Below are positions 17,378 through 19,664 of a DNA stretch of 64,000 nt, piece after piece. Where the stretch lies: the IMG/VR virus record IMGVR_UViG_3300020048_000063, positions 1-64,000 of that record; one strand, written 5' to 3'. Made by a program: the position numbers and the translations under genes. Under the pieces are notes generated by a model. That model ran no database searches, was not told the origin of the DNA, and saw only the letters and a list, made by a program, of their open reading frames with translations. The DNA is from a virus. Position 1 is the stretch's first letter. Each line of letters begins with the position of its first letter.

Positions 17378-17456
17378 TACACCAGAAGGGATTTGAACCC
17401 TCATTTTTCATTCCGTTATGCACATAGAGTTTAGGAAACTCCGCCATTACTGGTGC
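17378..17456 (-). tRNA. atypical D-armless tRNA-Arg(CCU)
   Basis: Acceptor GCACCAG/CUGGUGU, anticodon arm GGAGU-UUCCUAA-ACUCU, T arm GAGGG-UUCAAAU-CCCUU; no D arm. Confidence 0.65.
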
Positions 17457-17767
17457 GTATTTTTTTGTTCTAAAATATCAAACATCAAAGTTTTAACATT
17501 TTCAATAGTTTCTTTCAAATCCATATTATCAAGAATACTATTATGTACCGAACCAATTTCATTTGTAAAAAATTTTTGTTCTAATAAATTTTTTGTCATT
17601 GATAAACAAAACAGTTGAAGATCATATATATCCTCACCTTTGTCTAAAGATTTGCATCCCCAAAAATAAGAAACATATTCAGACTTAATATTTGATTCTC
17701 CTAAACTTAAAAGTTTTTTCTTGCGTTCCTCCTTAAGAACAGGCTGGTGTTTTATTTCTATAATCAT
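17447..17767 (-). CDS. hypothetical protein within tRNA cluster
   Basis: 106 aa; contains EERKKKL; stop codon lies inside the downstream tRNA. Confidence 0.55.
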   Translation of the reverse strand: MIIEIKHQPVLKEERKKKLLSLGESNIKSEYVSYFWGCKSLDKGEDIYDLQLFCLSMTKNLLEQKFFTNEIGSVHNSILDNMDLKETIENVKTLMFDILEQKNTHQ

Positions 17768-17779
17768 TTGTTAAAATAT

Positions 17780-17856
17780 TGGTGATCCTGGCAGGATTCA
17801 AACCTGCGACCTGAAAATTAGAAGTTTCCCGCTCTATTCAACTGAGCTACAAGACC
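17780..17856 (-). tRNA. tRNA-Arg(UCU)
   Basis: Canonical cloverleaf, loop CUUCUAA, encoded CCA. Confidence 0.93.
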
Positions 17857-17909
17857 ATTGATTTATATGTTCACATATTGGAATTAATTTAAAAAGTTTA
17901 AAAAATTTG

Positions 17910-17998
17910 AGCCATTTATTGGATTTGAACCAATGTGATGAGATGTCTCATACCTGCTTACGAGGCAGGTCTAATCAACCAGACTATAGGAAAATGGC
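17910..17998 (-). tRNA. tRNA-Thr(CGU), long variable arm
   Basis: GCCAUUU/AAAUGGC, loop CUCGUAA, 18-nt variable region. Confidence 0.8.
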
Positions 17999-18005
17999 AT
18001 TTTTG

Positions 18006-18089
18006 AGCCTTCGGCAGGATTCGAACCTGCGATGCGTGTGAACATCCTGCTTACAAGGCAGGCGGAGTCGACCTCTGTCCCACGAAGGC
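18006..18089 (-). tRNA. tRNA-Thr(UGU), long variable arm
   Basis: GCCUUCG/CGAAGGC, loop CUUGUAA, 15-nt variable region. Confidence 0.85.
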
Positions 18090-18096
18090 ATTTTTG

Positions 18097-18172
18097 TTGA
18101 TAGAGTGAGATTTGAACTCACGACCTTTTGCATGTCAAGCAAACGTTCTAGACCAGGCTGAACTACCTACCA
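18097..18172 (-). tRNA. tRNA-Val(GAC)
   Basis: Cloverleaf, loop UUGACAU. Confidence 0.88.
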
Positions 18173-18179
18173 ATATTTG

Positions 18180-18265
18180 TACTCCCAACAGGACTCGAAC
18201 CTGTATTATACTTCTCGTCTCCACTTTGTAGGAGTGGGATGTTTATCCAGTTACACTATAGGAGC
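18180..18265 (-). tRNA. tRNA-Val(UAC), long variable region, C33
   Basis: GCUCCUA/UGGGAGU, loop CCUACAA, 16-nt variable region. Confidence 0.78.
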
Positions 18266-18311
18266 ATAGTGATACTTTTTCCCTTAGTCTAAAAGTACCA
18301 AAAACCAAATG

Positions 18312-18398
18312 AGCGGCAAGTGAGATTCGAACTCACGGTGCGACTTTCGTCTTGCTGGATTGGCAACCCAGTTCCATCGTCCACTAGGAGATTACCGC
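18312..18398 (-). tRNA. tRNA-Gly(GCC), long variable arm
   Basis: GCGGUAA/UUGCCGC-U73, loop UUGCCAA, GAC-GAAA-GUC V arm. Confidence 0.85.
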
Positions 18399-18405
18399 AA
18401 TTTAT

Positions 18406-18481
18406 TGGAGCGATAGATGGGGCTCGAACCCACAACCTCAACCTTGGCAAGGTCGCAATCTACCAATTGATCTACTATCGC
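18406..18481 (-). tRNA. tRNA-Gly(GCC)
   Basis: Canonical cloverleaf, U73, encoded CCA. Confidence 0.93.
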
Positions 18482-18489
18482 AATGTTTG

Positions 18490-18576
18490 AGCGGTAGGTG
18501 GGATTCGAACCCACGACGTGAACTTTATCTGACTGGCTTGGAAGGCCAGTACCATCGACCACTAGGAGACTACCGC
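18490..18576 (-). tRNA. tRNA-Gly(UCC), long variable region
   Basis: GCGGUAG/CUACCGC-U73, loop CUUCCAA, 18-nt variable region. Confidence 0.85.
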
Positions 18577-18586
18577 GTCTTGAACT

Positions 18587-18653
18587 ACAGATTACTTTTT
18601 TTGGAATTTCAAATTACAAGTTTGGTCCTTTAAAGTTGCTGTAAGAAATCTTT
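18587..18653 (-). ncRNA. putative structured RNA, CAGCAA family
   Basis: AAAGAUUUC-UUACAGCAA...CAAA-CUUGUAA-UUUG...GUAAUCUGU. Confidence 0.55.
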
Positions 18654-18670
18654 AAGTTCGTTTTTTTAAG

Positions 18671-18725
18671 AACAGAATACATTTTTTCTCTTGGCATAGA
18701 TTTTTAATTGCTGAAAGTATTCTTT
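18671..18725 (-). ncRNA. putative structured RNA, AGAAUAC/CAGCAA family
   Basis: AAAGAAUAC-UUUCAGCAA...UGCCAA...GUAUUCUGUU. Confidence 0.6.
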
Positions 18726-18730
18726 ATCTT

Positions 18731-19090
18731 TTATTTTATAAATTCAGAAGTATTTCCTGCTAATGCAATTTCATTTACTTCTTTTTTTGTTAACCATTTT
18801 TTATTTGTATGTTCATTTTTATTTATTGTTACTAATGGTTTTTCATCAACAGTAACTTCATAAATATCAACTTCTATTCCTGAAACAGAGATTTTTGTAT
18901 CAACAAATTGAATGTCATTTTCGTTTAATTCTATTTGAGTTTCTTCTTTTACTTCTCTTATTATTGCTTCTTTTGATGTTTCTCCTTCATCTAATTTTCC
19001 ACCGGGTAAACACCATCCGAATGGTTTTGTTTTTCTTAATAAGAACAAAATTTCATCTTTATTCTTAATTATCATTACTGTTGCTTTCAT
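18731..19090 (-). CDS. NUDIX hydrolase
   Basis: PGGKLDEGETSKEAIIREVKEETQ Nudix box. Confidence 0.92.
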   Translation of the reverse strand: MKATVMIIKNKDEILFLLRKTKPFGWCLPGGKLDEGETSKEAIIREVKEETQIELNENDIQFVDTKISVSGIEVDIYEVTVDEKPLVTINKNEHTNKKWLTKKEVNEIALAGNTSEFIK

Positions 19091-19114
19091 CTTTTTTATT
19101 TTTTTAATTATTTG

Positions 19115-19187
19115 AGGTTTCTACCAGATACGAACTGGTGTCTCATCCTTACCAAGGACGTATTCTAACCAACTAAAATAAGAAACC
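19115..19187 (-). tRNA. tRNA-Thr(GGU)
   Basis: GGUUUCU/AGAAACC, loop UUGGUAA, T arm ACCAG-UUCGUAU-CUGGU. Confidence 0.8.
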
Positions 19188-19191
19188 AAAA

Positions 19192-19254
19192 TGAATTTCT
19201 ATGCTTCGGTCTCTCCGCTGGAGTCCTTCTATGAAATTCTAACAGTCTCGGTCG
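19192..19254 (-). repeat. duplicated structured inter-tRNA element, copy 2
   Basis: GAGACUGUUAGAAUUUCAUAGAAG...GCAUAGAAAUUCA, nearly identical flanks to 19369-19422. Confidence 0.7.
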
Positions 19255-19361
19255 TGGGTAAAATTGGATTTGAACCAATCTAGAAAATCTGCGATAATCT
19301 TCTACTTCCTAATACAGTGCTACTTAGTCCGCGTTAACTAAGTTCTCATATCAATTTACCC
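19255..19361 (-). ncRNA. tRNA-like RNA with non-canonical core
   Basis: Acceptor GGGUAAA/UUUACCC-A and T arm AUUGG-UUCAAAU-CCAAU, with two long hairpins instead of D and anticodon arms. Confidence 0.6.
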
Positions 19362-19368
19362 AAAAAAT

Positions 19369-19422
19369 TGAATTTCTATGCAAGTCTTTCGGGACTTCTA
19401 TAAAATTCTAACAGTCTCCTCG
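19369..19422 (-). repeat. duplicated structured inter-tRNA element, copy 1
   Basis: GAGACUGUUAGAAUUUUAUAGAAGUCCCGAAAGACUUGCAUAGAAAUUCA. Confidence 0.7.
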
Positions 19423-19499
19423 TGGAGGATAAGGAATTCGAATCCTTCTGATATTCCGCATTGCAAGTGCGGCGACCACTCCCAGCAGTCCCATCTCCC
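19423..19499 (-). tRNA. tRNA-Ala(UGC), atypical
   Basis: G3:U70, loop CUUGCAA; A4-C69 mismatch and G8G9. Confidence 0.78.
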
Positions 19500-19506
19500 A
19501 ATTTTG

Positions 19507-19580
19507 TGGAGTTAGTGGGACTCAAACCCACGACCTCTTGAATGCAAATCAAGCGTTCTATTCATCTGAACTATAACCCC
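19507..19580 (-). tRNA. tRNA-Ala(UGC)
   Basis: Canonical cloverleaf, G3:U70, loop UUUGCAU. Confidence 0.9.
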
Positions 19581-19586
19581 ATTTTG

Positions 19587-19664
19587 AAGCCTAGGAGGGA
19601 TTCGAACCCTCATTTTCAATCCGTTATGCGTCTAGAGTTTAGAAAACTCCGCCATTACTAAGCC
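19587..19664 (-). tRNA. atypical D-armless tRNA-Arg(UCU)
   Basis: Paralog of 17378-17456; GGAGU-UUUCUAA-ACUCU, T arm GAGGG-UUCGAAU-CCCUC. Confidence 0.65.

Follow-up and report, generated by a model that had tools for sequence, protein, structure and literature searches.

The cloverleaf is regarded as universal outside mitochondria, and the locus considered here raises the question of whether two genes that depart from it encode working tRNAs. They lie on the minus strand of a 64,000-nt stretch of viral DNA (hereafter the window), within a tRNA array between positions 17378 and 19840. The window is part of a 98.8-kb IMG/VR record (IMGVR_UViG_3300020048_000063) with an estimated completeness of 14%; it has a G+C content of 25-30%, and among deposited phages it is best matched by four uncultured "Lak-type" megaphage records of 635-735 kb (LR756501-LR756504). 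An original prediction, made from the letters of the window, had described the two genes as paralogous, selected, D-armless tRNA-Arg genes with a D-loop-like motif displaced to the 3' side of the anticodon arm. Our analysis suggests that both are probably functional tRNA-Arg species, the CCU gene for AGG and the UCU gene for AGA and AGG, with a rewired core in which the two halves of the D stem would pair across the anticodon arm.

Layout of the two genes and their relatives

Reading of the minus strand agrees with the elements as first described, namely their coordinates, the CCU and UCU anticodons, the stems and a 22-23-nt segment containing GCAUAACGGA. In the CCU gene a 7-bp acceptor stem (GCACCAG/CUGGUGU) is followed by U-A-AUGGC, the anticodon arm GGAGU-UUCCUAA-ACUCU, a 23-nt segment AUGU-GCAUAACGGA-AUGAAAAAU, the T arm GAGGG-UUCAAAU-CCCUU and the discriminator A. 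The UCU gene has the acceptor stem GGCUUAG/CUAGGCU, a linker and anticodon stem identical to those of the CCU gene, the anticodon loop UUUCUAA, a 22-nt segment AGAC-GCAUAACGGA-UUGAAAAU 3' of the anticodon arm, the T arm GAGGG-UUCGAAU-CCCUC and the discriminator U. A9 is separated from the anticodon stem by 5 nt, and this interval holds no D hairpin of the kind in which 10-13/22-25 close a D loop. The D-loop-like motif with its GG lies 3' of the anticodon arm in both genes, as predicted, in the form U-A-A-C-G-G-A; in the CCU gene these bases would be the equivalents of U13, A14, A15, N16, G18, G19 and A20. There the U and the first G of the linker pair with the A and C of the downstream GCA.

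A homologue search, which the original prediction had proposed, was carried out as four pattern scans of IMG/VR, anchored on the insert motif, on the linker and T loop, on the insert and T loop, and on the anticodon loop, AANGGA and T loop; the last leaves both the linker and the bases before the motif unconstrained. The scans yielded 98 distinct sequences with the rewired layout, 74-81 nt long and hence of normal tRNA size, with 91-nt ACG members standing apart. Their source contigs have a G+C content of 26-56% and are often longer than 100 kb; the family, cultured phages included, occurs in phages of Bacteroidota, Actinomycetota and Pseudomonadota hosts. While the record itself contains exactly two copies, both by motif search and by search with the covariance model R1 (see below), the two-copy arrangement recurs in the related megaphage contigs L018, L032, L045 and L239, and the CCU and UCU pair is confirmed in those whose anticodons were read (L032 and L239). 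This retention of the pair bears out the view of two paralogous tRNA-Arg genes under selection. CCA is encoded directly after the discriminator in 41 of the 98 members, against about 1.6% by chance, and 70 of the 98 have another tRNA gene within 500 nt; for example, in contig L256 a rewired UCU gene stands between tRNA-Arg(ACG) and tRNA-Tyr in a 23-gene array.

Several members occur in cultured phages (Table 1), and others are found in the Streptomyces phages Daubenski, Bmoc and others, in Rhodococcus phage NiceHouse and in Stenotrophomonas phage SOVA965. A BLASTN search of cultured phages with a window gene matched only the Lak-type records LR756501 and LR756503, and the other cultured-phage members were reached with other family members as queries. 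In Salmonella phage Felix O1 the 22 annotated tRNAs score at most 33 bits under R1, against 55.4 bits for the rewired gene, the 3' part of which is overlapped by the annotated start of an HNH endonuclease coding sequence (26003-26395). A scan of 185,579 prokaryote species genomes with the subclass signature gave one match, in a contig of a metagenome-assembled genome (L224), which fails the family model.

The proposed split D stem and tertiary core

Covariation was computed on an alignment of the family made with MAFFT (alignment A2). Across the 98 homologues, pairing stands at 98.7% in the acceptor stem, 94.5% in the anticodon stem and 98.6% in the T stem; double-sided changes in the stems number 645, where shuffles give 176 ± 15, and the covariation score of 0.885 compares with 0.22 in shuffles and 0.10-0.17 when the partners are slid. 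Beyond these three helices, and with linker and insert both left free, the triplet at linker positions 11-13 is complementary to the one that directly precedes the invariant U-A-A. At least 13 complementary triplet combinations are encountered, including CGG/CCG, CAC/GUG, CAG/CUG, CUG/CAG, CGC/GCG, CUC/GAG, CAU/AUG, ACC/GGU, CGA/UCG and CGU/GCG. At column pair 12:40 the counts are UA 52, CG 40, AU 3 and GC 2, with none unpaired; at 13:39 they are GC 82, AU 8, CG 5 and UA 2, with one unpaired; and neither pair shows a one-sided change. The selection patterns and the regular expression used impose no pairing on these positions. At the third pair, 41 sequences have a Watson-Crick or G-U combination, while 57 sequences, the subclass of the window genes, have G opposite G. 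In this subclass either G or A occurs as the fourth linker base and the following C is invariant, and therefore the helix there is likely to consist of U:A, G:C, a bulged purine and then C:G. The same bulge is seen in two sequences of the other subclass (linker CGAG against CCG), and one variant of the window subclass swaps the second pair from G:C to A:U (L182:3098-3174). For the window genes the split D stem would thus rest on homology to the sister subclass and on this one compensatory variant. Conservation, covariation of all four helices, restriction of isotype and genomic context are all observed in the family.

As judged from these patterns, the D arm is rewired and not lost: a short D-stem equivalent is predicted between the 5' linker and the bases preceding U-A-A-N-GGA. 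The term "D-armless" consequently holds in part, since there is no D hairpin before the anticodon arm, whereas the linker and the downstream bases form a D-stem equivalent by family covariation. The region before the anticodon arm is more than a spacer and pairs in part with the downstream segment, and the non-cloverleaf nature of the architecture is upheld in the sense that the D-stem equivalent forms across the anticodon arm. As the split D stem is predicted to enclose that arm, it is a nested helix and not a pseudoknot. Other pairing schemes were tried and set aside. A local hairpin within the insert, in which CAU pairs with a following AUG, is at odds with the many members without an internal AUG or UG (e.g. 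GGA-CUAAU, GGA-UUAAU and GGA-AAGAU). Pairing of linker base 10 with U13 conflicts with the composition of base 10 (A 37, U 17, G 2, C 1) against a fixed U. Pairing of the linker G-C with the two bases before GCAU is inconsistent, and the A-N-G-Y stretch resembles an ordinary 44-47 variable loop. A pseudoknot is unnecessary, the supported helix being nested.

In standard numbering, members of the family run from 1-7, U8 and A9 through the 22-25 strand, normally the 3' half of the D stem, and base 26 to the anticodon arm (27-43) and a normal-looking A-N-G-Y stretch like 44-47. This is followed by 10-12, the 5' half of the D stem (GCA in the window genes), by U13, A14 and A15, by one or two pyrimidine-rich bases, and by G18, G19 and A20. 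The spacer that follows has 2-7 nt (one member has 9, and the 91-nt ACG members about 22) and leads to an invariant A, U48 and the T arm. The invariant bases are U8, A9, U13, A14 and the A preceding position 48, and likewise the GG and the flanking A14/A15; because the patterns fixed parts of the molecule, the invariance of the fixed motifs is partly due to selection of the sequences, except in the scans that leave those motifs free. Positions 15 and 48 are A/U in 101 sequences and G/C in two and are never mixed, and such joint switching is the behaviour to be expected of a Levitt pair. In the canonical core, as seen in yeast tRNA-Phe, residues 9 and 23, 45 and 10, and 21 and 46/48 are in contact; therefore the three new backbone joins of the rewired RNAs would link spatial neighbours of that core.

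Taken together, these features suggest how the molecule might work. In a megaphage of 26% G+C, in which AGA is by far the main arginine codon, the halves of the D stem would pair across the anticodon arm and produce a three-way junction in place of the cloverleaf, with the variable spacer ending in A-U48 and leading directly into the T arm. With the core-building nucleotides all retained (U8-A14, R15-Y48, and G18/G19 with the T loop), the RNA would fold into a near-normal L shape, be charged by arginyl-tRNA synthetase (ArgRS) via A20, C35 and U36, and be used by the ribosome. It is from the sequences that we infer the three-dimensional fold, processing, arginylation and decoding of these RNAs.

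A canonical class I tRNA-Arg (RF00005; e.g. 17783-17856) shares with the rewired genes the 7-bp acceptor stem, the 5-bp anticodon stem with a 7-nt loop (U33, C35, A37), the 5-bp T stem with its UUCRAAU loop, the bases U8, A14, R15/Y48, G18, G19 and a putative A20, a location in tRNA arrays and, often, an encoded CCA. The difference lies in the order of the parts, as in the rewired genes the 3' strand of the D stem precedes the anticodon arm and the 5' strand and D loop follow it; the D loop is not a closed hairpin and continues into the T arm, and the junction is three-way, not four-way. The metazoan mitochondrial D-armless tRNAs (tRNA-Ser(AGY), and those of nematodes and mites) likewise have no D hairpin and a short 5' connector. 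However, they have lost G18/G19 and the lock between D and T loops, are shortened and need co-evolved partner proteins, whereas the phage RNAs keep the core nucleotides, are 74-81 nt long and presumably use unadapted bacterial machinery. In place of the unpaired connector and the lost G18/G19-T-loop contact of the mitochondrial type, the family has an invariant GG and a connector that pairs with a downstream strand. Class II tRNAs (Leu, Ser, Tyr, Sec) and allo-tRNAs with long variable arms also have extra nucleotides between the anticodon and T arms, but they retain the whole D arm, and their insert folds into a hairpin of its own, whereas the rewired insert is half a D stem plus a D loop. The circularly permuted tRNA genes of Cyanidioschyzon merolae similarly deviate from cloverleaf order at the gene level and pass through a circular intermediate to an ordinary tRNA. 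In the rewired genes no cutting and joining of a linear transcript restores the canonical order, so the mature RNA itself would have to be rewired.

A full-text literature search found no description of D-arm-rearranged or D-armless tRNAs from phages or bacteria. Phages are not mentioned in a 2020 review of non-canonical tRNAs, and a 2024 paper states that all known bacterial tRNAs are cloverleaves and that natural armless tRNAs are exclusively mitochondrial (PMC11551756). If the proposed architecture is correct, the requirement of translation would be the L shape and not the cloverleaf topology, and the family would offer a natural test case for how the core is read by ArgRS, RNase P, the CCA-adding enzyme, modification enzymes, EF-Tu and the ribosome. 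As members occur in cultured phages (Felix O1, Mildred21, Atu_ph04), these questions are directly testable.

Probable arginine identity and competing explanations

Arginine anticodons are present in 99 of 103 parsed members, which use UCU, CCU, UCG, ACG and CCG, and all 99 carry G-G-A. The four others, found by R1, combine G-G-U with Ile(UAU) or Val(UAC) anticodons (Table 1), so arginine is not strictly the only isotype of the rewired design. The main ArgRS determinant in bacteria is A20, which acts with C35 and U/G36, and U20 is part of the isoleucine identity set (PMC9976931). The window anticodons, CCU and UCU, supply C35 and the U/G36 base, and the A that follows G-G in both genes would occupy structural position 20. 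The switch from A to U along with the anticodon would be expected if synthetases read the base after GG as position 20, and it argues for genuine aminoacylation. The bacterial arginine set further includes A or G at discriminator position 73 (PMC9976931); the CCU gene has A there and the UCU gene U, and the family has A in 44 members, G in 38, U in 15 and C in one. AGA (322) and AGG (37) dominate the 427 arginine codons of the long open reading frames (ORFs) of the window, and hence tRNAs with UCU and CCU anticodons fit its arginine codon demand. A canonical tRNA-Arg is also present in 32 loci, and in 25 of these the rewired gene brings a different arginine anticodon. Evidence for a phage-encoded ArgRS in the 98.8-kb record was confined to a 14-bit sub-threshold match to PF00750, which is uninformative given that the record is about 14% complete.

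A number of observations weigh against regarding the window genes as functional tRNAs with a rewired core. Neither encodes a 3' CCA, both have a G1-U72 wobble, and the discriminator of the UCU gene is U and not A or G. RNAfold does not predict the split D stem in the window genes and gives weak whole-molecule z-scores (-1.4 and -0.6). In their subclass only two Watson-Crick pairs (U:A and G:C) are certain, the third position being G opposite G unless the second linker G bulges so that the C pairs with G, a choice that covariation cannot make since the bases are invariant. Finally, the rewired UCU copy duplicates a canonical tRNA-Arg(UCU) 1.7 kb away, as happens in six other loci, and plain codon supply therefore fails to account for its retention.

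In one alternative, the RNAs are real tRNA-Arg species whose subclass is effectively D-armless and flexible, like mitochondrial tRNA-Ser(AGY), with the linker and GCAUAA acting through tertiary or protein contacts and with no canonical L shape. The G opposite G in all 57 sequences of the subclass, where the other bases are fixed and helix covariation amounts to the single G:C to A:U variant, and the open state of the region in minimum free energy folding are compatible with this; we consider it unlikely, as the sister subclass, with an identical layout, pairs the homologous positions with many compensatory changes, U8, A14, A15/U48, G18 and G19, which mitochondrial D-armless tRNAs have lost, are retained, and the only variable linker base of the subclass (the fourth, G or A) is exactly the predicted bulge. 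The redundancy of the UCU gene with a canonical one, in the window and six other loci, and the essential confinement of the family to phages might instead suggest tRNA-like decoys or regulators, such as a sponge or competitive inhibitor of a host nuclease or modification enzyme directed at tRNA-Arg, or processing signals of the array. This appears slightly less probable still: 42% of members encode CCA, 25 of 32 arrays gain from the member an arginine anticodon that they otherwise lack, covariation of the acceptor stem is full, and the change of position 20 from A to U together with Ile or Val anticodons, which aminoacylation identity predicts, would be needless in a decoy.

Charging with an amino acid other than arginine, and thereby recoding of AGR/CGN codons in phage genes, might be imagined, given that, among sense codons, bacteria have most often reassigned those for arginine and that an odd core could in principle alter synthetase recognition. 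It is very improbable in view of the intact arginine identity set (putative A20, C35 and U/G36) in 99 of 99 Arg-anticodon members (PMC9976931), the occurrence of five different arginine anticodons and the coexistence of members with ordinary tRNA-Arg genes in the same arrays. An equally remote reading takes the genes for decaying tRNA pseudogenes with a deleted D arm, which would agree with the Rfam score of only 30.3 bits, the lack of an ARAGORN call and the missing CCA. The covariation data all but refute it: at least 98 distinct homologues across three host phyla show compensation in each helix and core bases that do not vary, and the same gene pair is retained in related megaphage contigs.

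Functional tRNA-Arg genes with a rewired core thus remain the preferred interpretation. As to why they are maintained, a tentative and rather doubtful proposal is that the tRNA core has a second wiring, other than the cloverleaf, which ordinary synthetases, EF-Tu and ribosomes of bacteria accept. Phages would keep it, even beside a canonical tRNA of identical anticodon, because its altered backbone path evades or resists a host factor that recognises or cleaves normal tRNA-Arg. Candidates for this factor are a defence nuclease that targets tRNAs and an enzyme that depends on the D arm, and the family might thus point to a phage counter-measure against tRNA-directed host defences.

Detection by tRNA finders and other features of the array

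The expectation that standard finders would miss this architecture is largely borne out. ARAGORN calls neither rewired gene in the window and overlaps only 5 of the 98 family genes, and in GenBank phage records family genes are unannotated or labelled "tRNA-OTHER". In the array between 17378 and 19840 ARAGORN reports 12 tRNA genes, and the Rfam tRNA model at its gathering threshold also reports 12, namely 11 of the ARAGORN genes and 19587-19664. The score of both rewired genes with Rfam RF00005, 30.3 bits, is barely above the gathering threshold of 29, and the alignments reduce 15 D-arm positions to 4 nt and place an insertion of 19-20 nt in the variable region. RNAfold recovers the three classical helices in both genes. 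The covariance model R1, built from the 98 homologues, gives the window genes 78.0 and 77.7 bits, a match that is partly by construction as they are in its seed. Ordinary tRNAs reach at most 34 bits in the window and at most about 40 bits in other loci. If the genes are indeed tRNAs, this would expose a blind spot in the tRNA annotation of phage genomes.

Table 1. Positions of the rewired tRNA genes, their parts and related genes; plain coordinates refer to the window, those with an L number to other contigs and those in rows on a named phage to the genome of that phage
Feature	Location	Strand	Basis or remarks
Rewired tRNA-Arg(CCU) gene, 79 nt	17378..17456	-	RNA nt 1 = 17456; Rfam tRNA 30.3 bits; R1 77.7 bits; sequence reading
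Rewired tRNA-Arg(UCU) gene, 78 nt	19587..19664	-	RNA nt 1 = 19664; Rfam tRNA 30.3 bits; R1 78.0 bits; sequence reading
Anticodon CCU, reads AGG	17433..17435	-	Sequence reading
Anticodon UCU, reads AGA (AGG by wobble)	19641..19643	-	Sequence reading
CCU gene, U8-A9 and linker A-U-G-G-C (putative split D stem, 3' strand)	17443..17449	-	Covariation at A2 columns 12:40 and 13:39; triplet table
CCU gene, GCA (putative split D stem, 5' strand) and U-A-A-C-G-G-A	17412..17421	-	Invariant A1/A2 columns; GGA in 99/99 Arg members
UCU gene, U8-A9 and linker A-U-G-G-C (putative split D stem, 3' strand)	19651..19657	-	Family covariation; triplet table
UCU gene, GCA (putative split D stem, 5' strand) and D-loop-like U-A-A-C-G-G-A	19620..19629	-	Family covariation; invariant columns
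Ordinary cloverleaf tRNA-Arg(UCU)	17783..17856	-	ARAGORN; Rfam 61.9 bits; R1 only 20 bits
Ile(UAU) members with G-G-U	L193:5360-5436; L152:3146-3222; L245:743-823		Found by R1
Val(UAC) member with G-G-U	L254:10637-10713		Found by R1
91-nt rewired tRNA-Arg(ACG) members	L139:1305-1395; L124:3206-3296; L201:389-479		Extra hairpin-like insertion between GGA motif and T arm
Salmonella phage Felix O1 (NC_005282; L345), rewired tRNA-Arg(UCU)	25951-26029		Unannotated; R1 55.4 bits
Streptomyces phage Mildred21 member	86379-86453		Annotated "tRNA-OTHER"; R1 83.7 bits
Agrobacterium phage Atu_ph04 member	about 112818-112893		Unannotated; R1 77.6 bits

The array contains further unusual elements. Five long tRNA-like genes on the minus strand (17909-17998, 18005-18089, 18179-18265, 18311-18398 and 18489-18576), corresponding to Thr(CGU), Thr(UGU), Val(UAC), Gly(GCC) and Gly(UCC), are 85-90 nt long and have variable regions of 13-17 nt, a length normally reserved for Leu, Ser and Tyr tRNAs. 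A clear hairpin in the insert is seen only in Thr(CGU), and similarly long Thr, Val, Gly and Pro genes are called by ARAGORN in the related contigs L018 and L045. The canonical tRNA-Arg(UCU) at 17783-17856 and the tRNA-Ala(UGC) at 19507-19580 (minus strand) have D loops of the form ...U-G-A-A-U-A..., without the usual G18-G19 doublet in Rfam alignments.

Two other tRNA-like elements lie on the same strand. That at 19248-19366, of about 110 nt and called by no scanner, has a 7-bp acceptor stem (GGGUAAA/UUUACCC), a T arm and two or three extra hairpins (z = -2.3), and is flanked by copies of a direct repeat of about 55 nt at 19190-19245 and 19368-19420 (gaatttctatgc...attctaacagtctc). The second, at 19674-19760 and likewise uncalled, combines a normal T arm with an acceptor helix that is long and an anticodon loop that may read UGG; its sole match is a sub-threshold one to the Rfam tRNA-Sec model (19 bits against 47), and relatives have "tRNA-Pro(UGG)" calls of 85-91 nt.

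Protein-coding genes are also associated with the array. A NUDIX hydrolase gene (PF00293, 56 bits) lies inside it at 18731-19090 on the minus strand. Directly upstream, at 19879-20556 on the same strand, is an ORF of 225 aa in which the core domain of class II aminoacyl-tRNA synthetases is recognised (PF00587, 30.7 bits, cut-off 29.3); its length falls short of a full synthetase, and it shows weak matches to glycyl-tRNA synthetase structures, and adjoins three tRNA-Gly genes, two of which are unusually long.

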